DNA from: Clostridia bacterium
Lineage (GTDB): Bacteria; Bacillota; Clostridia; Christensenellales; UBA1242
Length of the DNA stretch: 64,000 bases
NCBI GenBank assembly: GCA_050872785.1
Contig: JBNMHO010000005.1
Span: 919 to 64,918 of the forward strand
Direction: 5' to 3'
The notes beneath the pieces were generated by a model that searched no databases, was not told the DNA's origin, and saw only the letters and a program-made list of their open reading frames with translations. Positions 3,311-18,780 of this stretch are shown here, in pieces. Numbering within the stretch: the stretch's first letter is position 1; every line of letters begins with the position of its first letter. The translations under genes were made by a program, and so were the position numbers.

Positions 3311-3345
3311 AAAAAAAGAAGCACAACTTTTGGTCATGCTTCTTT
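3311..3345 (-). terminator. rho-independent terminator closing the phage-like late/lysis operon
   Basis: Stem AAGAAGCA/TGCTTCTT (3317-3323 / 3337-3343) followed by a U7 run on the minus strand, 15 nt after the stop of the 105-aa gene. Confidence 0.6.
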
Positions 3346-3358
3346 AACAATACTTATT

Positions 3359-3676
3359 TTATTCAGTGATTTTATTTTTAGAGGTTTTTTCATCTTTTTT
3401 AGTTTTTTCTTTTGTAGATTTCTTTTCTTTTGTAATTTCTTCAGCGGCTTCCTCGCCTGCAAGTTTCTCAGCAATCATATCCTTAATTTCCTCGTCACTT
3501 CGCCCTGTGTCATTTTTCAAAATGCCAAAGCAGCACAAAATGCACAAAACAATGCTCACGCAGTCAATAAGGATACTCATAGGCAAGTCAACGCCAAAAT
3601 TTTTGCAAAGTGCTTGCACAATTCCAATTATGCCGCAGCAAATTGCAATCCAGAAAACAAGGGATTTTTTCTTCAT
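3359..3676 (-). CDS. holin-like small membrane protein (two TM helices plus a highly charged K/E-rich C-terminal tail)
   Basis: 105 aa with the MKKK-TM-loop-TM-charged-tail architecture typical of class II holins. Its start overlaps the stop of the upstream BhlA-like gene (ATGA). Confidence 0.45.
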   Translation of the reverse strand: MKKKSLVFWIAICCGIIGIVQALCKNFGVDLPMSILIDCVSIVLCILCCFGILKNDTGRSDEEIKDMIAEKLAGEEAAEEITKEKKSTKEKTKKDEKTSKNKITE

Positions 3677-3891
3677 TTCTTTTGCCCCCTATAACCTATT
3701 TTAAGGTGAATGTTTTTCACCTCCTCACGAATATCTTCCACCACGTCCAAATGTTCATTGAGTTTGTAAATTGTTTGTTGATACTTCTTTTCTCTTGAAG
3801 CGCTATCCCTAAGTTGATAGACCAAAAGAGCAACAAACAACACCGCCCAAAGTCCATTTGCCAGTGCAAGTTTAAAAATTTCTTCCCACAT
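3673..3891 (-). CDS. BhlA/UviB-family holin-like protein
   Basis: 72 aa with an N-terminal single TM (LANGLWAVLFVALLVYQL) followed by RDSASREKKYQQTIYKLNEHLDVVEDI. This resembles the BhlA/UviB pattern (TM, then K.S.ERE.KL..I.. coiled tail) and sits at the end of a phage structural operon. Confidence 0.6.
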   Translation of the reverse strand: MWEEIFKLALANGLWAVLFVALLVYQLRDSASREKKYQQTIYKLNEHLDVVEDIREEVKNIHLKIGYRGQKK

Positions 3892-3977
3892 ATCTTATTC
3901 CAAAAAGGATCTTCTTGAATTCCTGCTTAATTTTCTTTTCATCAATAATCTTTCTTTTTGTCACTTTGCGGGGTTTC

Positions 3978-5411
3978 TTAGCCATCATTTCTCACCCTAA
4001 ACACCATTTCAACATCTCTTTGTGCCACAAGGTTATCCGTTCCAGAAAGGGTTATCCAAAACTTTTTCCCAGGCAGTTTGCAGTAATATTTTCTGTTTGG
4101 AGTGTTATCCTTCACCTCAAATTGCCTAAAGCCCTCATCAGAGCAAACTTTTAGTGTCATTCCCTCGCCCACGCCAAGATAAATTTCATCAAGAATTTTC
4201 TTCTTGCCGCAAGAGCCTAAGTCAATGTCCGCACTTTCATAAAGTCTATCCATAATAATGCCATAAAACGTGCCACTGTCGTCAATTTGATACAACATTC
4301 TGTCGTCATCAACAAGCAAAACAAGTCTGCTTGAGCCTTTGTCGCACACAGCCATAAGACTTCTTATGTCATAGCCTTTCATAATGCTATATGAGTAGTC
4401 GTCAAGGTTAATTTCGACCAAAGCATTATTCTTCTTTGTGTCCGTTTCGCCAAAGTCAAATTTCATAGCAATATACAACTTGCCTTCATACGCCTCGCTT
4501 ATTGCATAACTTTGGTCAACGTCTTGAATTTTCTCCTCAAAGCCCATCGGAATTTTTTTAACTTCATATCCGTCAGTGCAATAAAGCCCGTCTTGTGCCA
4601 AGAAATAGACCATGTCTTTCACCTTTATAACAGTGTCCGCATAAATCTTACTTCCAGAAACAAGCACGCTGTTTATTGTCGTCATTGAAATGACTCTTGG
4701 AATCTCCACCCTAACAATTTCATAATCACCAATGCAAAGTAGCCCATTGTCCAGTGGAACAAGCATCCTCATCTGCCCTTTGCTTTTGTGAAGGTTAATT
4801 TCTCCAAGGTCAGCAGTGTCGCTCCAGTCAAAAAGTTTTGCTTCTTTGGTATATTTTAGAAGTCCGTCATCGGTGTTGCACAAGCCAAAAAGCCTTTCGT
4901 TGTAGTAGCAAATGGAGCAGAACTTTGTGCCACGTGCGGCGATCTGTGGGGTTGTGCTATTTTCAAAATAGACAAGATCGTCAGAAGTGACACAAAACAT
5001 TGCCCCGTCTTTGTCCCCCCAACTAAAAGTGCTAAAGCAAGGCGTCATTCCAAAGGGATAGTCAAGAAGTTTTATGTAATCTCTATCGTTGTCAAACAAA
5101 TCAAAAGCATACAACTTATTGTCAACCCCCCAGCAAAACATTACATATTTCCTCTCGCCCGATGTAGCGTCCCGATAACTATATTTCCAAATCTTTTTTA
5201 GTTTGCAAGGAGGTTGGATAACTTCAAGTGGCGTTTTAAGATTGATATTTTGTGGCAAAGTGAATCTTGTTGTCCCGTTTGCACAAACAAGTTTATCATT
5301 TTTCATTTTGATGTTGTAGCATGTTTTTGCAAGCCCAGGGCTTTTGTCCGAGCCTGCATATTTTGTCGAAAGTTTAAAATTAAGCCGTTTGACCGAAAAC
5401 ATCTTACTCAT
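3978..5411 (-). CDS. phage-island structural orphan in the tail/nozzle position, beta-rich and unknown
   Basis: The likely start is ATG 5411, overlapping the upstream stop as TAATG, with AGGTGG upstream. About 477 aa with repeated beta-strand-like segments (LYAFD, LVYFE, LFGLC, LLCIG, VYFLAQDGLYCTDG, LYIAM). No catalytic motif recognised. Confidence 0.55.
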   Translation of the reverse strand: MSKMFSVKRLNFKLSTKYAGSDKSPGLAKTCYNIKMKNDKLVCANGTTRFTLPQNINLKTPLEVIQPPCKLKKIWKYSYRDATSGERKYVMFCWGVDNKLYAFDLFDNDRDYIKLLDYPFGMTPCFSTFSWGDKDGAMFCVTSDDLVYFENSTTPQIAARGTKFCSICYYNERLFGLCNTDDGLLKYTKEAKLFDWSDTADLGEINLHKSKGQMRMLVPLDNGLLCIGDYEIVRVEIPRVISMTTINSVLVSGSKIYADTVIKVKDMVYFLAQDGLYCTDGYEVKKIPMGFEEKIQDVDQSYAISEAYEGKLYIAMKFDFGETDTKKNNALVEINLDDYSYSIMKGYDIRSLMAVCDKGSSRLVLLVDDDRMLYQIDDSGTFYGIIMDRLYESADIDLGSCGKKKILDEIYLGVGEGMTLKVCSDEGFRQFEVKDNTPNRKYYCKLPGKKFWITLSGTDNLVAQRDVEMVFRVRNDG

Positions 5412-6037
5412 TATTTCAACCACCTTTTAGCCGGCATAATGTTTCGGCGGTTGTCAATTTTGTCCGCCTCCTCAAGATAACGCTTCCTTATAACCTCCGC
5501 CTCGTCAAAACTTCCTATCATATATAAATATTCGCTTGCCGTTCCAAGAGCCAGCACAATGTCCGTCACCTTCCCAAACAAAAAGTCAACATTCCCAAGT
5601 GGGTTTTGCTTTGGTGGAATGTAGGAATAGACCAAAGTCACTTTGCCGGGCTTATCAATTTCAAGTATGCCATCTGGCTTTATCTTGAATGGAATTTTTT
5701 TCCCGTCACGCAAAACATAATACACCTTCACCATGTCAGAAAGCATATACACAGCATATTGATTGGTTTTAAAGTCAATCTCTTTTTCCTTTTTCAAAAC
5801 AAACTTATCCGTGCAAATGCTTCTTAACGCCACATTAAACGCTTCAGTAAGTTTGTTAAAAAGTTTTGTGGTCTGTGGGTCAATGGTAACAAGCAAAGTA
5901 GTGGTGCTTGCAAAAATATTCCCCGTTTGTGGGTCATAACGACTAATGTTGCCTTTGAAGTATTCAAACAAATCATTCAACTCCGACTCTATGCCACAAT
6001 AATAACTAGCAGTCTTTAAAATATCAACAACATCCAT
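5411..6037 (-). CDS. phage-island orphan (possible head-tail adaptor by position)
   Basis: 208 aa, co-oriented and tightly packed two genes downstream of the MCP. Nothing supports the call beyond position. Confidence 0.5.
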   Translation of the reverse strand: MDVVDILKTASYYCGIESELNDLFEYFKGNISRYDPQTGNIFASTTTLLVTIDPQTTKLFNKLTEAFNVALRSICTDKFVLKKEKEIDFKTNQYAVYMLSDMVKVYYVLRDGKKIPFKIKPDGILEIDKPGKVTLVYSYIPPKQNPLGNVDFLFGKVTDIVLALGTASEYLYMIGSFDEAEVIRKRYLEEADKIDNRRNIMPAKRWLK

Positions 6038-6086
6038 TTATTCTTTTCCTTTTAATCAAAATTTTTTGCAGGTCGTTGCAACTTCC

Positions 6087-6464
6087 CTATATCCACCTTG
6101 TGGTATCACACTTAGAGAAGTCACAGTCCCGCTTTGTTTTTTCCAAAAACCTAAGGCGTTCGGACAAAAGAAGTTTGCTTTTTGCACTTATCAAGTCCGA
6201 GGCTTTTTTCTCCAAAGTGGCATTGGTTTTGTCAATATCTGCAACAATTTTCTTTGCAAATCTAACATTTGTCCTTTGAGATTTATCAAGCACGCTTTTG
6301 TCAAGTTTGCCGTCAACAGAAAAAGCAAATTCCCGCCCGTCAAACACAACAAATTTTCTGCCTATTTTGTCCCAAAAAATCTTGTATCCACTATGAATTT
6401 TTTTAAGCCTAGTTTCAATGCCAAACAAATCGTTTTTCACTCTTTTTAAATGTTTAAAGTTCAC
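6087..6464 (-). CDS. phage-island small basic protein, unknown
   Basis: 125 aa with a GTG start at 6464, 23 nt after the MCP stop. Lys/Arg-rich. Confidence 0.45.
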   Translation of the reverse strand: MNFKHLKRVKNDLFGIETRLKKIHSGYKIFWDKIGRKFVVFDGREFAFSVDGKLDKSVLDKSQRTNVRFAKKIVADIDKTNATLEKKASDLISAKSKLLLSERLRFLEKTKRDCDFSKCDTTRWI

Positions 6465-6487
6465 TTCTTTTTCCCGCCTTTAGTCAG

Positions 6488-7654
6488 TTATTTTACAATG
6501 TTGCAAACTTTTCCTTGTGCAGATGGTCTGTCGCAAATGAGTTCAGCATATTTTACAAGAGTTGCAGAATATGTTGGAGTTTTTGCACTTGGAATAAGAA
6601 TATTGCCGTTTTCTCCTTCAAGCCATTCCCAATCGCAAAGTTGGTGCATATTGAAGTCTTTTGTGTTAAGAAGATACATTGTGCCGTCATCGACAAATCT
6701 TTCAAACACAACAGGAATTCCAGCATAAGTCATAGCCTTGTATCCGCCAGCAAGAGTTGCAACGTCAATATTTCTTTTGCTTGCAGCAAGATAACCTTGA
6801 TACAAGTTTCTCACATCACCAGCCATAGCAATAAAGTCAACTTGGCTTCCAGTTTCTTCTTCAATGTAGTTTAGCGCCTTTTGAATAAGGACATCAGACA
6901 TTGAAGCTTCTGATGAGTTTTCGTCAACATAAGGATAAAGCCATTTATAAGCACTTCTGTCAACGCCATAAAGCACTTTGTTTGCGTCAGTTGTGTCAAA
7001 AATTCTCTTTATGCCGGTGATTTCGTTGTCTTTTGAGCCAGCAGCATAAATCTTATCACCATTTGCAAATGTAATGCTATCAGCAAATGTAACAGTCTTG
7101 TTGCGTCTGTCAACATATGTAACAGTTGTTGTTTTAACACTTGAACCACTGTAAATGTCAACTCTCATTCCTTCAACAAAGTTCTTGACAGAACTGAAAG
7201 TTGTTGTAGTTTTTGTGTCGTTAGTTGTAACTGTAACAGTTGCAAGAAGCCCAGTGCCGTCACCATAGACCATTCGTCCAAGGTTAAAGCAACTTGACTT
7301 AATAAGACTTTCCATTTCATCATTCAAAAGATTGACAAATGCCCCGGTGTCGCTCATACTTGCTCTAATTGCCTTGTCTGAGAGTGCTATTGTGCCATAA
7401 AGGTTTTTAAGGTCTGTTTTAAATTGCAAAAATTTGTGGCCAGCAGATTCTGGAAGTTCGCCAGTTTCGCTTGAAGCACAAATGCCGCCATTAAGTCCAA
7501 ATGGAGCAAGTTTGATTATTTCCTTGCCATAGACGTCTTTGTTTGTTTGTTTAATTTTTGACATCAAAGCGTTAGAATTGATGTTAAGTTGTTCTGCAAG
7601 AACATTAAGATAAACTGATTTGAGTGCGTTTTGCGCGCTAGATAATGTAACCAT
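6488..7654 (-). CDS. phage major capsid protein (presumed HK97-fold)
   Basis: 388 aa directly after the acidic scaffold-like gene, in the portal-scaffold-capsid order. AAGGAG RBS. Size and composition are typical of MCPs. The fold is not verified. Confidence 0.7.
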   Translation of the reverse strand: MVTLSSAQNALKSVYLNVLAEQLNINSNALMSKIKQTNKDVYGKEIIKLAPFGLNGGICASSETGELPESAGHKFLQFKTDLKNLYGTIALSDKAIRASMSDTGAFVNLLNDEMESLIKSSCFNLGRMVYGDGTGLLATVTVTTNDTKTTTTFSSVKNFVEGMRVDIYSGSSVKTTTVTYVDRRNKTVTFADSITFANGDKIYAAGSKDNEITGIKRIFDTTDANKVLYGVDRSAYKWLYPYVDENSSEASMSDVLIQKALNYIEEETGSQVDFIAMAGDVRNLYQGYLAASKRNIDVATLAGGYKAMTYAGIPVVFERFVDDGTMYLLNTKDFNMHQLCDWEWLEGENGNILIPSAKTPTYSATLVKYAELICDRPSAQGKVCNIVK

Positions 7655-7685
7655 AATAGATTATTCTCCTTAATTTTTTTAATTT

Positions 7686-8291
7686 TTATTTTTTGTTATT
7701 GTTTTTTAATAGGTCTTTTGCCAAAACTTCTGCCTCTGCAAGGGTCTTTGGCTTAGAAGCGGGAGCAAATGCCACAGCACTTCCCTTGTCGCTTCCAATA
7801 AGTTTTGGTGAAACAGGCAACACATTTTCGTCAAAGAACTTGGCAACAACATAGTCACGCAAGTCAGCGTTTTGCATTACATATTCCTTCAAAGATTCCT
7901 TCTTTTCTTCTTCGGTCAAAACTTCCTCGTGAATTTTATTTTCACAAGTGTCAGAAGAAGTTTCTTCCGTCACCCTTTCACTTTCGGGTGAAAATCTATC
8001 TCTTGGACGTGAACCTTCGGGTGAAGATTTCTCTTCATTGTCCGAGTTTCCGTCCTTCAAAGACATTTTTTCATTGTCCTCAAGTTTTTTCTGCAAGGCG
8101 GATAAAAGTTGACACTTCCTTGTATATTCGCCATGCAAATTGTTATAGGCAACAAAAAGAGCCTTAGGGTCTTTAAACTTGCCCAAATCATTGGAGCCTG
8201 ATGTTTCTGTCCCTCCTTTTTCAAATATTTCCACATCTCCGTCCGAGGTCAAAACCTTGTCAGGTTGTTCCAATCTTTCTTCATTTTCCAT
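7686..8291 (-). CDS. scaffolding-like protein (acidic, helical/disordered)
   Basis: 201 aa, very E/D/K/S-rich, located between portal and MCP. Confidence 0.5.
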   Translation of the reverse strand: MENEERLEQPDKVLTSDGDVEIFEKGGTETSGSNDLGKFKDPKALFVAYNNLHGEYTRKCQLLSALQKKLEDNEKMSLKDGNSDNEEKSSPEGSRPRDRFSPESERVTEETSSDTCENKIHEEVLTEEEKKESLKEYVMQNADLRDYVVAKFFDENVLPVSPKLIGSDKGSAVAFAPASKPKTLAEAEVLAKDLLKNNNKK

Positions 8292-8370
8292 TTTTTTTAT
8301 TTCCTTTTAAATATTATATTTTCCTAAAAAGTGCATTTCCGCACCTTTCTTGCAAATTTAATTTGTCCAC

Positions 8371-8532
8371 AATGCAACACAGTTGCCAATCAAACTGCCT
8401 CGCAGAGCCAACAATGCAACGAATGTTGCTATCATGCCACCTAAAAGGGCTATGTCCACATTCGTGGACGAGTCCCTTAAGGGGGCTATCATGTTACGAA
8501 GTGACTATAATGCAACGCAGTTGCTATCATGC
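8371..8532 (-). repeat. three copies of a ~24-bp unit containing the inverted repeat GCAAC-N3/4-GTTGC, within a 250-bp noncoding spacer
   Basis: Plus-strand copies are AATGCAACacaGTTGCC (8371-8387), AATGCAACgaatGTTGCTATCATGCC (8413-8438) and AATGCAACgcaGTTGCTATCATGC (8509-8532). There is an extra GCTATCATG at 8485-8493, a hairpin GTCCAC-attc-GTGGAC at 8454-8469 and a palindrome CCCTTAAGGG at 8474-8483. Confidence 0.85.
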
Positions 8533-8542
8533 AAAAGCCTTG

Positions 8543-10057
8543 TCACACCAGTGACAAAATCTTTTGCTTAAATGTTTCGTCAACATTCCCATTTTTGTCT
8601 TTCAAAATTCCCGATGAGAGAAGTTTGAGCAAATAATCTCTCTTGCTTGCAACGCTTTCGTCCAGCAAACTATCGCTCATAAATTTAATATCTTCAAGCC
8701 CAAGGTCAGAATTCTTCCAACAAACAACACTGTCCTTGCCATTTTCAAGAACTTTAAGCCTTGGCACAACGGCAAATTGCTTGTAAAGTCGCAAAATCAT
8801 TTTTGCAACATTTTTAGTCGCAATCTTAATTTCGTCAATAGAAGCAGAAAGTCGTTGAGTGTTTTGTTCGACCAAAATCTCAAGAGCCGTTCCGCTCATG
8901 TTTTTAAGTGAATAGTCGGAGTTAAGCATATCGCTCACGCCACTGATTTGAGAAAACTCACTAAGCAGCCTTTCTTCTTCATTTTCAAAACATTCTGGGA
9001 ACTTTTCTTCTTCCATAAACTTTGGTGGTGTTGCGTTTTGCCTATATACTACAATTCGCCCAGGTTCAAGCCCGTCATCTTCAAGAGCAGTTATGTCAAC
9101 AGAGCCTTCTTCCACTGTCAAAACACCCATGCTAATTCTGTTTAAATATTCATGTTTTCTGTTTCGCACAGCGTTGTATGCCCTTTGAACTGGAATAACC
9201 TTTTCAACAACACTTTTACCCCAAAACGAGCCAGTAACTCTTAAACACACTTGCTTAACAAACGGAAAGCCACGTTTTTTATCTGCAAGGTTGACGTATG
9301 GAAGTTCACCCACATACAAAAGTTTATCTTCACACACAACAACCACTCGCCCCTCTGGATATTCAACAGACGGACTTTCATATCTTTCCACCACAACAAA
9401 CATGTCGTCACTACTATCCTTTAAAATATCCACACCCCAAATGTTTTTAATCGCCTTACGGGAAAACTTTTTAGCATGAATAATACTTTCGCAGTCTTCA
9501 ATGTCCTCATGGTCGGCACTGTCTGGATAAATTTCATAAGGTGACACAACGTCAACTTGCACTTCGCCTTCAAAAACGCTTTTGCCGTCTTTGTCATAAA
9601 TCTTTTTGCCGCCACAGTTGTTCCAAGTGACTTTATAAAAACTTGTGCCAGCAATTTCGCTCCAATTTGTCGCTTTGTTTATAATCTGAGCAATGTTTAA
9701 CTTTTCATAAACACTTCTTAAAATATCTCTGCTCAAACTTGCAGTTTTAACATCGTTTTCGTTGTCACTTGTTGGCATGACGTCCATTTCTGGTCTGACA
9801 TAAACAAGTCTGGCAAGCCTACTTTCAACAATAGGTGCAATGTGGTTAAACACCTCATTCATTTGCCAACTATATCCGCCGCACTCGTCTTCTATGTCGT
9901 CAAAACTATTAACTCGCAAGTTCTGCTTCCCTTGCAAAAAGTCATTGTTCAGCCTCCATTGAGCCTCAAAAACCTTTCTATCCTTTTGTCTTTTTAGAAA
10001 GTCGTTCATAACCTCCAAAACCAAGTCTTGAACATACTCACTCTTTTTCTTTCTCAT
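8543..10057 (-). CDS. phage portal protein
   Basis: 504 aa, located after TerL and a small ORF and before scaffold and MCP. Its start overlaps the upstream stop. Size and position are typical of portals. Confidence 0.7.
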   Translation of the reverse strand: MRKKKSEYVQDLVLEVMNDFLKRQKDRKVFEAQWRLNNDFLQGKQNLRVNSFDDIEDECGGYSWQMNEVFNHIAPIVESRLARLVYVRPEMDVMPTSDNENDVKTASLSRDILRSVYEKLNIAQIINKATNWSEIAGTSFYKVTWNNCGGKKIYDKDGKSVFEGEVQVDVVSPYEIYPDSADHEDIEDCESIIHAKKFSRKAIKNIWGVDILKDSSDDMFVVVERYESPSVEYPEGRVVVVCEDKLLYVGELPYVNLADKKRGFPFVKQVCLRVTGSFWGKSVVEKVIPVQRAYNAVRNRKHEYLNRISMGVLTVEEGSVDITALEDDGLEPGRIVVYRQNATPPKFMEEEKFPECFENEEERLLSEFSQISGVSDMLNSDYSLKNMSGTALEILVEQNTQRLSASIDEIKIATKNVAKMILRLYKQFAVVPRLKVLENGKDSVVCWKNSDLGLEDIKFMSDSLLDESVASKRDYLLKLLSSGILKDKNGNVDETFKQKILSLV

Positions 10058-10338
10058 TTTTTCTCCTTTTCTTTACTTAATAAATCAATAAGTCTTTGTT
10101 TTTCCATTTCAAGTTCCTCGTCAGACATTTCTTCATAAACGCTGCTATTTTTCATGGCGAGCAGAACTTTGATTGACGCCAAATCTGGTGCCAAAACTTT
10201 TTTAGATTCTTTTCTTGATTTAAGCCGCAACACGTCACTTTCGCCGTCTTTCACATATTCTTCGACAACTTCCTTCGACACCCCACCTTTGGCAAGGCTG
10301 ATAAGCGACTTTTTCAAAATTTCTTCTTCGTTATCCAT
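10054..10338 (-). CDS. small acidic phage-island protein, unknown
   Basis: 94 aa, overlapping both the TerL stop and the portal start (translational coupling). Confidence 0.5.
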   Translation of the reverse strand: MDNEEEILKKSLISLAKGGVSKEVVEEYVKDGESDVLRLKSRKESKKVLAPDLASIKVLLAMKNSSVYEEMSDEELEMEKQRLIDLLSKEKEKK

Positions 10339-11782
10339 TTCCCCTCCTTTTCAGTTTTCTTAACAACTCCTCTTTGTGAAGTTGAATTTTGTTCTTCTCA
10401 CGCTGTGCAGGGCGTGGCCGTGACATAAGATAATATCTAAGTTCGTCCAAGCAGTGGTCGTCTTTCTTAACTGGCACATCGCCCGTTCCCCAGAAATAAC
10501 TCTTAAACTCCTCAATCATGTTTTTGCAAGTGGAGAAAATAAACAATCTAGATTTCCCTTCAGCATTTTTTATGTAGCTTTTAACTTGAGCAATGCCCGA
10601 AAACAAGTCTTTGTTCACCTTTGTGTTAACATTTATGCCCCGTTCATAAAACAACTCCGCAACACTTTTTGTTCCGTTTAGTGTCCTCTGCCCGCCGGCA
10701 CTATCAATCAAGGCGTCGTAAGTCCCAAATGAATTTGTCTTCCAGCCAAGCCGCTCACAAGTTTCCTTAATTTTTGCAGCGTGATAGTCAATGTCTTTGC
10801 CCGCTTCAAAATGTTCCGCCACCACAAAAACATTGCCGTCATAGTCCACCGCATACCAGTGGCACGAAAGTGGGTTGTTAAGCCCAGGGTCAATGGAGAT
10901 ATTGTCAAACCACTCCTTTGGGACATCAAACGGTTCAACAACATTCACATTTTGGTCAAAGTCCTTATACACAAGCCCACACGCCCCAACAAAATGCCCA
11001 TACTTTCTGCTTTCAAGGTCATCACTACTCAGTGACTTTTCAAAATGCTCCACTTCTTTTGGGTCAAGATAAGGGTTGTCTTCCCACTGCATTTGCTCAT
11101 ACCAAACCTCATTATCGCCGTTTCTGTTCATAAAAATTTCGTCATAAACCCACGACAAGTTTTTAAGCGGTGTCATTGTTCCAAAAATTTCTCCACATCT
11201 GTCCATAACTCTCATCTTACACTCAAGATAAACATCTTTTGACGGTTCTTCGTCAAACCAAACATAATCAAGACTTGTCCCTTGAAATTTCTCTCTGCCT
11301 TGGTCACAACTCTTAAAGCCAATAACACTCACCCCGCCAAAAACATTTTTTATCTTTATGTAGTCAATAACACCACCTTCGGCAAAATCTTTCCTCCCCG
11401 AAAGCATGGCAATGTCAACAATCCATTCGGGTCTTAAGTAACTTAAAATCTTCTTTTGAGCCACATCTCTTTGCACTTGCTGCGAAACGCTGACAACCCA
11501 CCCGCTTGTGTTTTTCTTGTTTTTCTTATAGGGGTGATTTCCCCTTGCAAGCCACACACATTCCACAGCACCACACTCTGTTTTGCCCGTTCTGTTTCCG
11601 CCAAACACCCACCTATTCCGCTTTTGACTCTTATGGAAGGCAATTTGTTTTTTATGTTTAATTTTTCCCGAGTTGTAGTTTGCGAGTTTATCGTTTTTGC
11701 GACTTTCCAAAATGTTATAAATCTTTCTCAACTTGAGCAAAATTTCTTTTAAGCTCCCGCTGTTTTCGTATTTTTCTTCCAT
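10331..11782 (-). CDS. terL: phage terminase large subunit
   Basis: Walker A GGNRTGKT, Walker B YVWFDEEP, and nuclease-domain motifs ISIDPG and HCLDELRY. The likely start is ATG 11782 (MEEKYENSG); the ORF-track start at 11866 is an upstream extension. Confidence 0.9.
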   Translation of the reverse strand: MEEKYENSGSLKEILLKLRKIYNILESRKNDKLANYNSGKIKHKKQIAFHKSQKRNRWVFGGNRTGKTECGAVECVWLARGNHPYKKNKKNTSGWVVSVSQQVQRDVAQKKILSYLRPEWIVDIAMLSGRKDFAEGGVIDYIKIKNVFGGVSVIGFKSCDQGREKFQGTSLDYVWFDEEPSKDVYLECKMRVMDRCGEIFGTMTPLKNLSWVYDEIFMNRNGDNEVWYEQMQWEDNPYLDPKEVEHFEKSLSSDDLESRKYGHFVGACGLVYKDFDQNVNVVEPFDVPKEWFDNISIDPGLNNPLSCHWYAVDYDGNVFVVAEHFEAGKDIDYHAAKIKETCERLGWKTNSFGTYDALIDSAGGQRTLNGTKSVAELFYERGINVNTKVNKDLFSGIAQVKSYIKNAEGKSRLFIFSTCKNMIEEFKSYFWGTGDVPVKKDDHCLDELRYYLMSRPRPAQREKNKIQLHKEELLRKLKRRGNG

Positions 11783-11883
11783 AATATATCCCTTTCGACA
11801 ATCTCTCCAACAATTTTTCCCTTGCATATTGCTAAAATAAAGACACAAACTTATTATCACAACCACTATAAAGGAGTTTTAAA

Positions 11884-12726
11884 TTGAAACATATCAACGA
11901 CCACTCATTTATCCGTTTTATTTTTGCAACTGCAATTTTGCTTGTTGTTTTGCTTTCTCCTTTTTTAAATTTTTTCCCACCCACCACCTATGCTTCCACG
12001 CTTACCACCTACACCTATGCCCGAGCAGAAACAAGCGGCGTATATTTATATAAGTCCGCCTCTTCACTTGACTCCTCAAACATTCTTTTTGAAATCCCCG
12101 AAACATATTTTGTAGGACTGCTTTCAAACTACGACAACAAGTTCTACAAAGTTATGTATCGTGACCTAACTGGCTTTGTCCTCAAGTCGTCTGTCACCCC
12201 CGTAAAAGAAACTCCCGAAACGCCCTATCTTGAAAACGTAACTTTCCGAGTGTTTTCGCCAGGTGGCACAGAACTTGTAGCCAACCCCACATCAAAAAGC
12301 CCAACAGTCATAACGACCGTTGAGCAGAACACAACATTAAATTATTATGGAAAATCCGTTGGACAGGAAAACATTTCTGGCAGAGGTTCAACGTGGTATT
12401 TTGGCACAACTACCACAGGCGAGCGGGGATACATTTACAAAGGTCTAACCGACCAACTATCCCACATTCCCATAAACTCCGAACGCACCACCGCAATTTC
12501 TTCTCCGTTTGGTGATTCAAACGACTATCTCTACAACTTAGTGGACATTTCACTAGGCTCAAAAATTTTGATAATTCTTCTTACAACCCTTCCCGTGGGG
12601 CTTCTTATTTATCTTCTTCTGAAACCCTACAAAATTGAAAAAACTCTTACATCACACACCTCCAAAAATAAACTTCATCCAAAAACCATTCGTCAAATTC
12701 AAGACCAAACAGATAACACAATCTAA
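11884..12726 (+). CDS. membrane-anchored protein with two SH3b-like domains
   Basis: TTG start 8 nt after AAGGAG. It has an N-terminal signal/TM segment, two segments with bacterial SH3-like signatures (YKVMYRDLTGFVLKSSV; GERGYIYKGL) and a C-terminal TM. It is the only plus-strand gene inside the island. Confidence 0.55.
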   Translation: MKHINDHSFIRFIFATAILLVVLLSPFLNFFPPTTYASTLTTYTYARAETSGVYLYKSASSLDSSNILFEIPETYFVGLLSNYDNKFYKVMYRDLTGFVLKSSVTPVKETPETPYLENVTFRVFSPGGTELVANPTSKSPTVITTVEQNTTLNYYGKSVGQENISGRGSTWYFGTTTTGERGYIYKGLTDQLSHIPINSERTTAISSPFGDSNDYLYNLVDISLGSKILIILLTTLPVGLLIYLLLKPYKIEKTLTSHTSKNKLHPKTIRQIQDQTDNTI

Positions 12727-12811
12727 TTACAATTTTCTTTTAAACATCCCATTTTTGCTATTTTGTTGTTATTTTTGTCTAAAATTTGCTATTTTTCATT
12801 CATTTTCTACA

Positions 12812-13345
12812 TTAAATTATTTTTCTTAAACGTTTTAGCAACAAATTGCACACAACTTCTGGGCAATCTTCAATGCTACCGCCCATTTTTTCATACGAAC
12901 ACAACTTTTCCATTGTTTCTTGCCAAAATATGCCCTTAAACACTTCGTTATACACTCTTTTTGCATTTTGAAAGTTCATTCTAAAATATCCTTCAAATCC
13001 AGTAAGAGCTTTTTGCTTTTTTCTGAAATATTCCCTTCTCGATAGACCCAATCTTTTTGCACAGTCATTGTTTGAAATTCCGTCAATAAAGTGATTGATA
13101 ATAAGCCTTGCGGAATACTCATCAAGTTGCACCAAAGTTTTGTCAGTAAGCACTTTTAGATTTATCATATTAACTTTTTGTTGCGACAGAGCGATAATCG
13201 CATTTGTTTGCCGATATGTTCCGTCCTCTTGCATTTGCACGGGCGAAATTGCCCTCGCTTCGATAATATTGTCTATGCTGTCGCACAATGCAGGCAACAG
13301 TTTATATATAGACAAAAACGATTTACACCAAAATTCAAATTTCAT
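12812..13345 (-). CDS. HTH DNA-binding regulator (sigma-70 region-4-like), putative late-gene activator of the island
   Basis: The likely start is ATG 13345 behind GGAGAGG. The segment DCAKRLGLSRREYFRKKQKAL looks like a region-4/ArpU-RinA-type HTH. It sits upstream of the packaging genes. Confidence 0.45.
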   Translation of the reverse strand: MKFEFWCKSFLSIYKLLPALCDSIDNIIEARAISPVQMQEDGTYRQTNAIIALSQQKVNMINLKVLTDKTLVQLDEYSARLIINHFIDGISNNDCAKRLGLSRREYFRKKQKALTGFEGYFRMNFQNAKRVYNEVFKGIFWQETMEKLCSYEKMGGSIEDCPEVVCNLLLKRLRKII

Positions 13346-13389
13346 TTTTTTTCCTCTCCAAAGAACTATTTTCGCCACCCTACATTTCA

Positions 13390-13418
13390 ATTTTATAAGC
13401 CACTTTTTCAAAAGTCAA
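13390..13418 (-). promoter_or_regulatory. sigma-70-type promoter for the island regulator
   Basis: TTGACT (13418-13413), a 17-nt spacer, then TAAAAT (13395-13390), about 45 nt upstream of ATG 13345. Confidence 0.5.
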
Positions 13419-13571: not shown

Positions 13572-13585
13572 CAAACATTTGTTCG
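13572..13585 (-). promoter_or_regulatory. LexA (Cheo-box)-like site
   Basis: The minus strand reads CGAACAAATGTTTG, compared with the Firmicute consensus CGAAC-RNRY-GTTYG/C. It is about 160 bp upstream of the regulator promoter, and I saw no good promoter overlapping it. Confidence 0.3.
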
Positions 13586-13749: not shown

Positions 13750-13760
13750 ATATCATTTAG

Positions 13761-13863
13761 TCATATTTTAATAAATTTTACCCATCATCATATATTTTTG
13801 TCATATTTTAATGAAATTTGACTTTTTTATACATTTTCTATTCATATTTCAATGAATTTTGAC
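13761..13863. repeat. three ~22-bp direct repeats at 40-41 bp spacing (iteron-like)
   Basis: TCATATTTTAATAAATTTTACC (13761), TCATATTTTAATGAAATTTGAC (13801) and TCATATTTCAATGAATTTTGAC (13842). They lie between the stop of the OB-fold gene and the terminator. Confidence 0.8.
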
Positions 13864-15606: not shown

Positions 15607-18600
15607 CTACACCACAGGCAGATAAACTCTCTTAGGTGTTAGGTTTTTCAGTTGTTTTTCAATAGGTTTTCCTTTGCCCGTTCTGCTGTCAATCGCAACA
15701 AGGTCTGTTGGTTTAAATAATAGGTCATCGTCCGTCACAATCGCCATTGTGGTTGGCTTGTCTATAACTGCTGCAAACGCCACCTTGCCGCCAGTTGCAG
15801 TTATCTTCTGCCCTTTTCTGTATCTTACGCTTTGTTCAATGGACTTAACTACCGTTCTCTTGGCAACGCCCTTATCGCCAACAATCAAAATTTCCCCAGC
15901 ATTTTTTATGGAAACAGCAACACACGCACAAGTGTCCTTCCCTCCAAGTGCTACACCTTTAACACCGCCAGCCACACGCCCTTGCAATGGAATGTCGTCA
16001 GTCTTTGCATTAAGCACCATGCCCTCTTTTGTTACAAAAACAATCGTCCAATCTTCCTTTGGCTCTGGCACAACGTCCAAGACTTCATCGCCGTCCTTAA
16101 GTTTCATGGCTTGATAGGTCTTTTTGAGAAGTGTATATTCTTCTCTTGCGGTCTTCTTTATCATGCCGAATTTTGTTAGGAATATAAGATTATCTTCGCC
16201 TTTCATTTCCTTTTCGTCATACATGGCGATTATGTGTTCGTCTTTTGCTAGGTCTTTGAAAATGGAATAATCGGCAACGCCTTTATCTCTATATCTGCTC
16301 TCGCCAAAGGCTGCAACTGGAATTTTAAGACAATTTCCGAAGTTGCTGAACGCAATTATGTTGGTGTCAGAGGTGACGTTTAGTTTTAGTGTGTGAACTT
16401 GTGAAAGTGTCGAATTTTCGCCAAGTTCCTTGCTGCTTAGGTTAAATTGCTTAACTGGAACAGCCTTAAACATTTCGTCAGCCGTTTTCAAAACGACAAG
16501 TTCCTTAACTTCATTTTCTTGCTCTGCAATTTCTTCTGCAGTTGCTGGTTTTTCGTCATCTTTTAGGAATTTCGTCAATCTTTCGCTCTTATATTGCTTT
16601 TTAATTTGCAACAATTCGCTCTTGACCACTTCATATTGTTTTCTTGGACTTTCGACAATAGATTTAAGTTCTTTAATAAGAATTTTAAGCCCTTTAAGTT
16701 CTTCTTGCAATTTGTTAACTTCAAGACTTGTAAGCCTTGCAAGTCGCATATCAAGAATTGCTTGTGCTTGTCTGTCGTCAAGAATAAACTTCTCTTTCAG
16801 TCTTCTCTTGGCTTCTGTGGTGTTTGGTGAAGTTTTAATAATTTTCACCACAGCGTCAATATTTTTGATTGCAATAATAAGACCTTCCAAAATATGCGCC
16901 CGTTCTTCCGCTTGCTCAAGGTCATATTTGCTTCGTCTTAAGACAACTTCCCGTTGATATTCGCTGTAGTATGAAATGATATCAAGAAGTCCCATTTGCT
17001 TTGGCTTGCCGCCCGCAATGGCGACCATATTCACGCCAAATGTTCCTTGAAGTTCAGTGTTTTTGAGCAGTGACTCATAAATTTTATTTACGCTGGCGTC
17101 TTTTTTAAGTCGAATGACAGCACGTTGTCCGTGTCTATCTGATTCGTCCCTAATCTCTGCAATATTTTCAAAGCCGAACTTGCCTTCGTCCTTAAAACCT
17201 GCAATTTTTTGTAGCAAGCTTGCCTTATTAACTTGATAAGGAAGTTCTGTAATAACAATACTCTTTCTATCCGTTCCCGCACCTTCAATGTGCATTTTTG
17301 CTCGAAGATAAATTTTCCCACGCCCTGTTTCATAGGCTTTATAAAGTTCCGAACTTTCAAGAATATATCCGCCCGTTGGGAAGTCTGGGCCCTTTATTAT
17401 CTTCATCATTTGCTTTAGGGTGATGTTTGGATTGTCGATGTATGCCACAACGCCATCAATAGTTTCACCCAAGTTGTGTGTTGGAATGTTTGTCGCAAGT
17501 CCAACAGCAATGCCTGATGAGCCGTTGACCAAAATGTTTGGAAATCTGCCTGGAAGCATTTGAGGTTCTTTTTGAGTGTCGTCAAAGTTAAGTCCCCACT
17601 TAACAGTGTTTTTGTCAAGGTCACGCAAAAGTTCAAGTGCTATTGGTGCAAGCCTAACTTCTGTGTATCGAGCCGCTGCTGGAGGGTCACCGTCAACACT
17701 TCCAAAGTTTCCGTTGCCTTCAACAAGAATGTTCCTCATGTTAAAGTTTTGAGCAAGTCTGACCATTGCATCATAAACGGACGCATCGCCATGTGGGTGA
17801 TACTTACCAAGCGTTTCACCAACAATACGAGCAGATTTTTTGAAAGGTTTGTCTGGGGTGTTGCCCAGTTCGTGCATAGCAAAAAGAATTCTTCTTTGAA
17901 CGGGCTTCAACCCGTCCTCAACACGTGGCAATGCTCTGTCCAAAATAACATGTTCAGAATATGGAATCATGCTTTCATGAAGCACTGTGTCAAGGTTTTT
18001 GTAAAGTAGCCCGTCACCAATATTTTCGCCCGAGTTTTCCATATAAACTTTTTCTTCAATGTCAACTCTGTTCAAACTTTTATAATCATCACGGTCGCCA
18101 AGGTCAGCAAAAACATTTCGTCCAACGTTTCTATCCACTTCCTCAAAGCCTTTGTTTAGGTCTTCAACGTCATGACGAACTTTCAAGTTTTCGTCACTGT
18201 CAAAAAACATATCTGTATCAACTTCTTCCGTCTTTCTTCTTGAAGCTTTTTTTTCTTCAACCTTTTTGTTTTCAGTCTTGAGAGTCTTTGAAGAAGCCAC
18301 TTTTTTGTTTGAAATCTCGTTATTTGCCGTCTTTTTTGGTGTTTTTGTGACAGTTTTTGCAACTTTTTCTTCTTTTTTTGCCTTTTCCGCCACCTTTTCA
18401 GCCTTTTTTGTCACTTTTTCGTCTTTTTTGGCAGATTTCATGGTCTTTTCAACCTTTTTGTCGTCTTTTTTCTCATTTGCTTGTTTCTTGACCACTTTTG
18501 AAGGCTCACCCCCAATTTTTGTCAAAAGAGATTTCAATGTTTTGTCTTTGCCGTCTTTCGCTTTCAAGTTTTCCTCGTCCTTTTGTGTTAGATTTTGATT

Positions 18601-18780
18601 TTCGTCTTGCCCTAGGGATAACCCGTCAAGCATTGACATCTGCCCGTCAGCCACTTCAATTTGTTCCCGTTCGTCCTCGTCTTTTGGTTTTTCTTCCTCG
18701 TGAACAAACAGTTCCCCTATGTCAATCTGCCCATCAATCGCTCTTGGCGGGAGGATTTCATCATCTTCATAATCGTCCAT
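15607..18780 (-). CDS. parC: type IIA topoisomerase subunit A (ParC-like) with a ~246-aa K/E-rich N-terminal extension
   Basis: Motifs [19 protein letters not shown] (the Q is typical of ParC), [15 protein letters not shown] (the active-site Tyr region) and a beta-pinwheel C-terminal domain. It follows parE. The ATG at 18780 has GGGGA upstream. Confidence 0.8.

Follow-up and report, generated by a model that had tools for sequence, protein, structure and literature searches.

Gene content of the island

The 64-kb window analyzed here (the whole stretch of 64,000 nucleotides, positions 919 to 64,918 of contig JBNMHO010000005.1 in assembly GCA_050872785.1) comes from a Clostridia bacterium of the order Christensenellales and contains a compact island of podovirus-type genes. 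Eleven open reading frames (ORFs) lie on the minus strand between 3359 and 13345. In the order of transcription, they encode a regulator, the large terminase (TerL), a 94-aa protein, the portal, a scaffold-like protein, the major capsid protein (MCP), proteins of 125, 208, and 481 aa, a BhlA-type holin, and a second holin-like protein. All of them are present at the positions and in the order given in a preliminary description of this DNA. A further gene, on the plus strand, separates the regulator from TerL. The island measures 8.4 kb from TerL to the second holin gene and 10.0 kb when the regulator is included. Protein families were assigned with Pfam, NCBIfam, and PHROG profiles.

TerL (10331 to 11782, minus strand; about 483 aa from the ATG at 11782) matches Terminase_6N (E = 4e-15), Terminase_6C (E = 2.8e-6), and phrog_2 (E = 5.5e-33), and the Walker A and Walker B motifs pointed out previously can be read in its sequence as GGNRTGKT and VWFDEE. 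The portal (8543 to 10057, minus strand; 504 aa) is of the P22/SU10 type, with matches to P22_portal (E = 2.4e-18), SU10_portal (E = 6.8e-10), and phrog_156 (E = 2.5e-33). The MCP (6488 to 7654, minus strand; 388 aa) is of the podovirus type; it passes the NCBIfam equivalog model NF033394 (capsid_maj_Podo) by a wide margin (E = 7.5e-71; 239 bits against a cutoff of 80) and also matches phrog_14242 (E = 1.5e-49). The family models thus confirm the identities first proposed for these three proteins. Between the portal and MCP genes lies the gene for an acidic protein of 201 aa (7686 to 8291, minus strand), which has no family match in Pfam, PHROG, or NCBIfam. We infer a scaffold-like role from its position, which is kept in all loci, and from its acidic, low-complexity composition.

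The 94-aa ORF (10054 to 10338, minus strand) lies between TerL and the portal. Among the small ORFs found at this place in related loci, 11 of 25 match phrog_309, “terminase small subunit” (best E = 8.6e-9), and 4 of 25 match phrog_23444, with the phrog_309 matches spanning only profile positions of about 195 to 265 of 319, that is, some 50 to 70 residues in the back half. The ortholog in locus L010, which is 80% identical to the ORF in the window, gives an E value of 0.0024. The copy in the window itself has no direct match to small-terminase profiles, and the N-terminal part of the profile is left uncovered. We read the 94-aa protein as a short small-terminase (TerS)-like core without the usual N-terminal part. 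That a small terminase is missing, as the earlier account implies, is doubtful in view of the matching orthologs.

Three genes follow the capsid gene. The conserved 125-aa protein (6087 to 6464, minus strand) keeps its position between the MCP and the 208-aa protein across loci and is, by that position, a possible head-completion or connector component; its family has no match among PDB sequences or in PHROG. The gene for the 208-aa protein (5411 to 6037, minus strand) is always found directly upstream of the gene for the 481-aa protein, which it overlaps, and its product is a candidate head-to-tail adaptor in the place of P22 gp4 or T7 gp11. No credible match to this family was found among PDB sequences and nothing useful in PHROGs, and a single-sequence AlphaFold2 model (pLDDT 42) could not be used. 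For the fast-evolving tail proteins, word-based homolog searches yielded just five to seven relatives.

The 481-aa protein, 477 aa long over the coordinates 3978 to 5411 (minus strand) and previously listed as an orphan, is, judged from its modeled fold, a podovirus tail nozzle (tail tube B) protein of the P22 gp10/T7 gp12 class. The AlphaFold2 model is a beta-propeller with a pLDDT of 73 and a pTM of 0.71, built from a shallow alignment of nine sequences and of low confidence in residues 1 to 65. The best Foldseek match in the PDB is the tail of Pa223 (9nwi_Y; E = 5e-19; TM score, 0.63), followed by VP1, Pan3, SU10, a 470-aa chain of the P22 tail complex (9jg6_a), and T7 gp12. All of these top matches are nozzle or tube chains of podovirus tails, with E values from 5e-19 to 1e-8, and the matches in the viral structure library BFVD are annotated “P22 Gp10.” The earlier description of an island without long-tail genes therefore stands, but it does not extend to tail genes as such, since the nozzle is a podovirus tail gene.

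In 21 related loci, the nozzle gene is directly followed by a coiled-coil-rich gene of ~300 aa (e.g., L031:13719-14633), in the position of the P22 needle gp26. PDB sequences gave no match to this family, nor did any PHROG match the three of its members that were scanned. In a few contigs, genes for a “tail protein” of ~800 aa occupy the post-nozzle position. Neither kind of gene is present in the 64-kb window, where the operon instead continues with the holins. The BhlA-family holin (3673 to 3891, minus strand; 72 aa) matches Holin_BhlA (PF10960; E = 6.2e-18; 65 bits against a cutoff of 22.6) and has a single N-terminal transmembrane segment followed by a charged helix. The second holin-like membrane protein (3359 to 3676, minus strand; 105 aa) narrowly passes Phage_holin_1 (E = 1.1e-4; 23.1 bits against a cutoff of 22) and matches the holin family phrog_962 (E = 1.1e-5). 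Both holin calls of the preliminary description are thereby upheld.

Between the nozzle gene and bhlA there is also a small, very basic ORF of 37 aa (MAKKPRKVTKRK...; 3875 to 3985, minus strand), whose status as a gene is uncertain. It is 74 to 100% conserved in the near clade (L005 to L010), and a 35-aa gene is called at the same place in L004. The ORF overlaps the start of bhlA, so that its conservation is not necessarily its own, and it may not be a real gene.

Mobility functions, relatives, and inheritance

The island is not a mobile prophage. Its surroundings were checked in the 64-kb window and its neighbors, that is, in the window from 20 to 64 kb, outside the island, and, beyond rnj (the RNase J gene on one flank), in near-identical contigs. 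No integrase, recombinase, repressor, replication gene, tape measure, or long-tail gene was found in the island or in any of these surroundings. The earlier claim of an island without integrase, replication, endolysin, or long-tail genes is borne out over the same range, and the missing modules do not turn up immediately outside. Profile searches found no excisionase or primase-replicase among the island ORFs, scans found no tRNA or Rfam match in the island, and no att (attachment site)-like repeat flanks it. The island has nearly the GC content of the host genes (0.384 versus 0.394) and shares their codon usage (r = 0.96).

Megablast of the whole island against 50,697 deposited phage records returned no DNA match, and a tblastn search of the same records with the nozzle returned none either. 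The capsid has only four matches among them, at ~25% identity, in actinobacterial podophages such as Microbacterium phage Shocker. Shocker shares the order of terminase, two small ORFs, portal, scaffold-sized ORF, and capsid, and farther along its genome it encodes a “tail tube protein” of 214 aa and a protein of 514 aa. In IMG/VR, 30 contigs (L088 to L117) carry capsid relatives that are 43 to 61% identical; most of these contigs are short and carry the island module. Of four IMG/VR capsid sequences that were looked up, three are named proteins of Christensenellales or Clostridia metagenome-assembled genomes (MAGs), and all four lie on contigs of 183 to 486 kb. The “viral” contigs with the module therefore appear to be the chromosomal island, which virus-calling tools misclassify.

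One contig of this set, L113 (IMGVR_UViG_3300001682_000242; 60 kb), looks like a true podophage and shows what the island lacks. It resembles the island in its TerL, two or three small ORFs, portal, scaffold, capsid (43%), further small ORFs, and a 463-aa protein in the nozzle position, but this protein is followed by a 1394-aa tail fiber protein, and an HNH endonuclease and a replication-initiator-like gene lie upstream. When the 208-aa and 481-aa proteins were compared with their positional counterparts in Shocker and L113, neither pairwise BLAST nor hhalign gave a significant result. A phage-like context was seen only for this distant relative; homologs whose capsids are 54 to 99% identical sit in the same compact module on long chromosomal contigs, rather than inside ordinary prophages of 30 to 50 kb.

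Relatives of the capsid are numerous. The protein collection holds more than 4880 capsid relatives, with identities grading from 98% to 57% on contigs of up to 290 kb, and 3688 cluster representatives in a 50%-identity library match the capsid at E ≤ 1e-3. A search of species-representative genomes (one genome per species), in which the figures are lower bounds, gave at least 574 confirmed stretches related to the capsid. The best match there is Christensenella sp. UBA7862 (99%), and the rest of the best 80 matches, which were those inspected, are Christensenellales, “Clostridia,” or similarly labeled gut MAGs. A capsid homolog (WP_162990927.1) is also present in a cultured relative, Maliibacterium massiliense.

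Module order and identities were obtained by tblastn of all window proteins against the fetched loci. The conserved module runs from the regulator through the opposite-strand membrane protein, TerL, the TerS-like protein, an optional ORF of ~70 aa, the portal, the scaffold, and the capsid to proteins of ~120 and ~190 aa, the ~500-aa nozzle, zero to two extra genes, the BhlA holin, and the second holin. The capsid (54 to 99%) and TerL (62 to 98%) are well conserved across loci, and BhlA is 36 to 100% identical; for the nozzle, the adaptor candidate, the 125-aa protein, and the scaffold, identity drops quickly to 20 to 30%.

The island is inherited vertically with the chromosome, and purifying selection equal in strength to that on RNase J preserves its integrity. 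In 18 loci, which cover the whole range of 54 to 99% capsid identity, it adjoins the same 314-aa gene and rnj. Mantel tests on pairwise distance matrices show that island proteins diverge together with RNase J (r = 0.80 for the capsid, 0.83 for the portal, and 0.76 for the nozzle; P = 2e-4 each), and the capsid diverges no faster than RNase J does (mean pairwise distance, 0.316 versus 0.334). The ratio of nonsynonymous to synonymous substitutions (dN/dS), determined for the window genes against three relatives at dS values of 0.3 to about 2, is 0.03 to 0.31 for all twelve island genes, compared with 0.03 to 0.05 for rnj and parC. Within this range, TerL lies at 0.03 to 0.04, BhlA at 0.04 to 0.06, the 125-aa gene at 0.10 to 0.17, and the plus-strand gene at 0.13 to 0.16.

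Intactness was scored for each assessable locus by whether the gene alignment ran uninterrupted in a single high-scoring segment pair. By this test, the ORF is intact in 109 of 110 loci for the capsid and in 101 of 101 for the portal, as well as in 32 of 36 for TerL and 76 of 88 for the nozzle. Judging from the alignment coordinates, the non-intact cases appear to be terminal stops or low-similarity alignments. The low dN/dS values and the intact orthologs agree with the view, taken from the ORFs of the window at the outset, that the island is intact and not in random decay. The single capsid alignment with an in-frame stop, in L034 (5850 to 7019), may represent an assembly error or a genuine pseudogene.

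In many distant loci, the block of TerL and the regulator either does not occur within 10 kb of the head-tail block or is split off from it by unrelated genes, a separation that may be the dispersal typical of domesticated systems. As a separate observation, in 28 loci of a sister clade (capsid identity, ~55 to 59%), comEC lies 3 to 9 kb downstream of the head-tail-holin block. The loci with comEC nearby include L003, L004, L025 to L030, L043 to L046, L053, L054, L057 to L059, L065 to L067, L069, L070, L072, L077, L081, L084, and L086; in 25 of the 28, holA follows comEC, and no TerL lies within 10 kb. The proximity of comEC may be coincidental.

Regulation, transcription units, and flanking genes

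The regulator gene (12812 to 13345, minus strand; 177 aa) has a GGAGAGG ribosome-binding site (RBS) before its ATG at 13345. Profile matches place its product in the ArpU/RinA/DUF1492 class of late-gene activators, with a sigma-70 region-4-like helix-turn-helix: it matches phrog_248, “transcriptional activator” (E = 7e-7), and, below the cutoffs of both models, NCBIfam ArpU (E = 3.7e-4) and SigB/F/G region 4 (E = 4.6e-4). The ortholog in L001 carries Pfam DUF1492. A consensus scan returned the promoter-like site proposed earlier for this gene (13390 to 13418, minus strand), a sigma-70-like TTGACT-17-TAAAAT with 10 of 12 matches, which is a consensus match only.

Farther upstream, about 239 nt from the regulator ATG and within a 490-nt spacer, lies a palindrome that resembles a LexA (SOS/Cheo) box, CGAACAAATGTTTG (13572 to 13585, minus strand). 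The Firmicutes LexA-box consensus, known from DinR/LexA operators, is CGAACNNNNGTTYG, and the single exact match to it in the 64-kb window is at 13572 to 13585. Of 22 sequences preceding a regulator ortholog, 16 contain GAAC-N4-GTTC, perfect or with one mismatch, and these include lineages in which the regulator is only 29 to 37% identical. When lineages were collapsed to 12 and the motif frequency in all fetched loci was taken as background, the box was enriched both with one mismatch allowed (P = 2e-4) and as a perfect match (P = 5e-5). A box-like GAAC-N4-GTT(C/T) precedes the regulator in L001, L018, L028, L033, L051, L074, L079, and L080, and in several lineages the box directly abuts a TTGACA...TATCAT-type promoter or its -10 element. 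The motif suggests that the activator is under SOS control via a candidate LexA box.

A second recurrent element, which contains TTAGCAA, precedes TerL at a short distance in 11 of 34 loci, where chance alone would place it in 3.6% per locus. It lies at ~11828 to 11834 (minus strand) in the window and is also seen in L009, L010, L033, L051, L074, L079, L080, and L093. This element may be part of a late promoter on which the activator acts.

The plus-strand gene between the regulator and TerL (11884 to 12726) has an AAAGGAG RBS and a TTG start and is divergent from TerL. It encodes a 280-aa membrane protein with a signal peptide, two SH3b-like repeats (Pfam SH3_3 matches weakly, at E = 0.0019), a transmembrane anchor, a basic tail, and a conserved acidic C terminus with a DDxxL motif. 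The gene stands beside TerL in every related locus that keeps TerL, at identities of 26 to 99%.

Because this gene sits between them, the regulator forms a transcription unit separate from TerL, and the island consists of at least three units: the regulator, the divergent membrane protein, and the operon from TerL to the holins. The minus-strand genes had at first been described as one co-oriented, translationally coupled operon. The overlaps between ORFs (8 nt between TerL and the 94-aa ORF, 4 nt between the latter and the portal, 1 nt between the 208-aa and 481-aa ORFs, and 4 nt between the two holin genes) are consistent with translational coupling, but the plus-strand gene does not fit a single operon. 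The portal and scaffold genes are separated by a gap of 251 nt (8292 to 8542). This gap is noncoding, and a scan placed a terminator-like hairpin there (8559 to 8538). The structural-lysis operon is closed by an intrinsic terminator with a 13-bp stem and a T-run (3315 to 3345, minus strand), which is visible in the sequence and was returned by the scan where the preliminary description had placed it.

Annotation of the flanks agrees with the earlier account of an island wedged between rnj and housekeeping genes on the parEC side. On one side lie the genes for a 314-aa polytopic membrane protein and RNase J, and, beyond rnj in near-identical contigs, those for a SpoU methylase and a sigma factor, lepA, and hemN. 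On the other side lie genes for a single-stranded DNA-binding protein (SSB) with two OB folds and a polysaccharide deacetylase, followed by parC and parE. The other 44 kb of the window is housekeeping in character and encodes murG, a GH95 protein, an HtrA-like protease, recA, cinA, pgsA, a radical-SAM methylthiotransferase, ftsK, an M16 peptidase, pnp, recJ, secDF, yajC, tgt, and nrdD.

Two features of the parEC side were noted in passing. Three repeats of ~30 nt with a spacing of 40 to 41 bp and the core ATTAAAATATGAC (minus strand) lie at 13750 to 13860, between the SSB stop codon and the SSB terminator (13742 to 13709). The ParC ORF (15607 to 18780) is 1057 aa long, and its topoisomerase IV domain begins only at residue 282, so that either the N-terminal extension is unusually long or the ORF has been called too long. 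A length of 1057 aa is also called in 98%-identical contigs, and one of 1297 aa is called in L001.

Interpretation and comparison with known systems

With its gene identities, its vertical inheritance, the selection acting on it, and its absence of mobility functions, the island is probably a domesticated, podovirus-derived particle system of a Christensenellales gut bacterium that resembles a gene transfer agent (GTA). The preliminary description had proposed a functional minimal particle-forming element, which might be GTA-like, podovirus-like, or a satellite. The first two of these options gain support, as close homologs lie outside ordinary prophages, orthologs are intact, and the missing modules are not found next to the island. 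The satellite option does not, given the lack of an integrase, a replication module, and an att site and a chromosomal position that is fixed across genera.

In the mechanism that we propose, host LexA would bind the box upstream of the ArpU/RinA-class activator, and DNA damage would lift the repression, as the conserved motif suggests. The activator would then turn on the operon from TerL to the holins, in keeping with a family of phage late-gene activators. From the identities of their genes, the scaffold, the capsid, and the P22/SU10-type portal would be expected to assemble into a small procapsid, and TerL and the short TerS-like protein would fill it with little sequence specificity. The DNA packaged would be that of the host, since the element lacks replication and excision functions. 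The putative 208-aa adaptor and the gp10/gp12-type nozzle, for which the fold itself is in evidence, would close the portal, after which the BhlA-type holin and the second holin would open the membrane and particles would be released from a lysing subpopulation.

A precedent is FpGTA I of Faecalibacterium prausnitzii (Borodovich et al., Nat Commun 2026, PMC12946183), located at 2536737 to 2546346 of CP030777. Its operon of ten ORFs spans 10.5 kb and carries genes for TerL, portal, scaffold, and capsid, for podovirus-type proteins, and for a TerS-like protein that lacks a DNA-binding domain. A second locus of 5.5 kb, FpGTA II (2672270 to 2677176), 125 kb away, encodes baseplate, fiber, receptor-binding protein, holin, and endolysin; the particles are ~40 nm in size, apparently tailless, and contain ~8.5 to 9 kb of host DNA, and the authors describe the element as the first podovirus-like GTA-like element (PMC12946183). 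The same study records GTA-like packaging for MAGs of the Christensenellaceae, where HGM11616 (MAG 928_concoct.122) peaks at 4.07 and 7.07 kb and QANA01 sp019420265 at 6.3 kb, and reports no gene cluster responsible for these events (PMC12946183). Within the literature collection searched, no other report links Christensenellales to a GTA. The island is the best candidate for the source genes of the Christensenellaceae packaging, a connection drawn at the level of the family. At the same level, an island of 8.4 to 10.0 kb would not fit into heads that hold 4 to 7 kb, which would be a hallmark of a GTA.

Several observations weigh against this interpretation. The system is known here from its genes alone, and its link to the packaging seen in Christensenellaceae is made at the family level only. 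Neither the island nor the rest of the 64-kb window was found to encode a receptor-binding protein, a tail fiber or spike, a needle or plug, an ejection protein, or an endolysin. The TerS assignment rests on orthologs and a partial profile match, and that of the adaptor is positional only. In the window's clade, the LexA-like box is ~155 nt away from the best promoter match, on the upstream side, which makes its role as an operator uncertain, although it may act there on a second, upstream promoter. The loci without TerL nearby could reflect loss of TerL rather than dispersal. In addition, the portal in the window is shorter than in distant relatives by ~90 to 100 C-terminal residues, no remnant of this segment was detected, and an ORF of ~73 aa that precedes the portal in relatives is absent. 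Together with the absence of the ~300-aa gene, the missing portal C terminus marks the island as a reduced version, which may deliver no DNA in this clade and perhaps retain none either. Strong purifying selection nevertheless acts within the clade on the genes that are left.

These gaps bear most directly on a rival explanation in which the domesticated particle system is selected for something other than transfer, such as altruistic lysis triggered by the SOS response or by phage, a defense that sequesters DNA by packaging it, the DNA of an invading phage included, or DNA-filled heads or capsids that serve for killing, as a decoy, or for the release of extracellular DNA. We hold this to be rather unlikely, but it is kept serious by the lack of adsorption, needle, ejection, and endolysin functions. 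Purifying selection and vertical inheritance would fit it equally well, and the class of the regulator is one employed for late genes by phages and satellites. Without a fiber, a receptor-binding protein, or an ejection protein, and with the needle-like ~300-aa gene missing, efficient delivery is hard to see; the holins stand in the operon without an endolysin; and PBSX offers the precedent of a tailocin rather than a transducer. Even for FpGTA, the authors leave open whether the particles deliver DNA (PMC12946183). However, few genes of the island are as well conserved as TerL, and the adaptor-nozzle pair is retained. The conservation of TerL argues that DNA packaging itself is under selection, for which a pure lysis or decoy role would have no need, and there is no direct evidence for a role in defense.

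The remaining explanations were set aside on the evidence of mobility, selection, and inheritance. A satellite similar to the capsid-forming phage-inducible chromosomal islands (cf-PICIs), which would build its own small heads and borrow fibers, lysis enzymes, and induction from a helper podophage, would account for a compact element of ~10 kb with its own TerL, TerS-like protein, portal, scaffold, capsid, and connectors but no fiber or endolysin. It would also account for an activator of the class found in Gram-positive PICIs and their helpers, and the 8.4 to 10 kb of the island would roughly fit a small head. Nevertheless, no integrase, excisionase, repressor, primase-replicase, att repeat, or tRNA target was found, the composition is that of the host, and the phage collection contains no related helper. 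The same chromosomal position across genus-level divergence and the codivergence with RNase J indicate that the element does not move, and we consider a satellite improbable. An inert remnant of an old podovirus prophage, not yet decayed, would explain why most phage modules are missing and why the clade has lost the portal C terminus, the 73-aa ORF, and the ~300-aa gene. It is very improbable all the same, given the purifying selection on twelve genes out to a dS of about 2, intact ORFs in about 100 independent loci, a capsid whose evolution is as slow as that of RNase J, and retention of the island at one locus through deep divergence, because neutral remnants do not last so long. Head, packaging motor, nozzle, holins, and regulator within about 10 kb could, finally, be taken for a complete, very small temperate podophage that propagates itself. 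This is scarcely credible for an element that lacks genes for replication, integration, or lysogeny as well as any adsorption device, shows no strain-to-strain mobility, att sites, or compositional signature, and is vertically inherited.

A more far-reaching form of the GTA interpretation is conceivable, although we are inclined to doubt it as a whole: the island would be an independent, order-wide Christensenellales GTA, separate from FpGTA and switched by SOS and LexA, that is the source of the Christensenellaceae particles with 4 to 7 kb of host DNA in human gut viromes and that has, in this clade, a tail stripped down to adaptor and nozzle, with a delivery mechanism not known from phages. 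Delivery, if it happens, could for example be helped by competence proteins of the recipient. DNA uptake from the GTA of Rhodobacter needs homologs of competence proteins, and this form of the interpretation takes in the position of the sister-clade island next to comEC.

In the human gut microbiota, the Christensenellales stand out as heritable and associated with health, and their genetics is almost unexplored. For their DNA packaging, the island offers a concrete gene set, conserved in hundreds of species including the cultured M. massiliense, along with a candidate route of induction via the SOS response. If the GTA interpretation is true, podovirus-derived GTAs arose more than once in gut Clostridia, and the island genes could serve as markers for spotting such elements in metagenomes, where they are currently misfiled as viral contigs.

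Among known systems, FpGTA is alike in being a chromosomal operon of ~10 kb in gut Clostridia, with TerS-like, TerL, portal, scaffold, capsid, and short-tail genes, a TerS-like protein without an obvious DNA-binding domain, no replication or integration genes, and a near-ubiquitous presence in its host clade. The operon content that characterizes the FpGTA family is thus found in the island, but the N4-gp56 capsid and the second locus are not. The FpGTA capsid RCH50849.1 is annotated as N4-gp56 (Supplementary Data 2 of PMC12946183), whereas the island capsid is NF033394 and has no N4-gp56 match at E ≤ 0.05. No second locus for fiber, receptor-binding protein, or endolysin was found in the 64-kb window or in the 10 kb beyond rnj. 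The TerS candidate of FpGTA lies upstream of TerL and its holin lies in the second locus, while in the island the TerS-like gene lies between TerL and the portal and two holins are in the main operon. Among the 150 best capsid cluster representatives, those with a high-GC-like amino acid composition carry the names Christensenellales, Clostridia, and Maliibacterium, and none is Faecalibacterium. Since the capsid families differ, the island, judged from the published FpGTA annotation, is probably not an ortholog of FpGTA, and the two would be independent domestications.

The cf-PICIs are also small islands with their own TerS, TerL, portal, capsid, and connector and without tail fibers. They differ in having an integrase, att sites and a variable site of insertion, regulatory and replication modules with a master repressor, and helper-driven movement; none of these was found in the island, and its locus is fixed. 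PBSX of Bacillus subtilis is SOS inducible, packages host DNA, and lyses its producer. It is likewise a phage-like element of a Firmicutes chromosome, but it is ~28 kb long and myovirus-like, a tailocin with a contractile tail, the repressor Xre, the sigma-like Xpf, and an endolysin, and no sequence relationship to the island was seen.

Structural parallels are also seen with P22/SU10-like podoviruses, whose head and tail-hub module comprises gp3/gp2/gp1/gp8/gp5/gp4/gp10/gp26. They share the order of terminase, portal, scaffold, capsid, small connectors, and nozzle, the absence of a prohead protease, the portal models P22_portal and SU10_portal, and the nozzle fold of the P22, SU10, VP1, and Pa223 tails. 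P22-like podoviruses differ in their tailspike or fiber, needle gp26, and ejection proteins, all of which are lacking in the island; the TerS-like gene of the island follows TerL, and its identity to any deposited phage is 25% or less.

RcGTA and the other alphaproteobacterial GTAs resemble the island as domesticated, vertically inherited head-tail clusters under purifying selection. RcGTA can be encoded at dispersed loci, has a TerS without a DNA-binding domain, is regulated by the host, and is released by lysis. It is siphovirus-like, with a tape measure, a long tail, and an HK97-type protease in ~15 kb, and is controlled by CtrA, quorum sensing, and GafA, whereas the island is of the podovirus type and protease-free, and its activator, of the ArpU class, comes with a candidate LexA box. 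Two features that mark GTAs in general are found at the island: structural genes lie in the chromosome, throughout the window and its neighbors, without genes for replication, integration, or lysogeny, and synteny at 18 loci, the Mantel tests, dN/dS, and the intact ORFs all show vertical inheritance under purifying selection.

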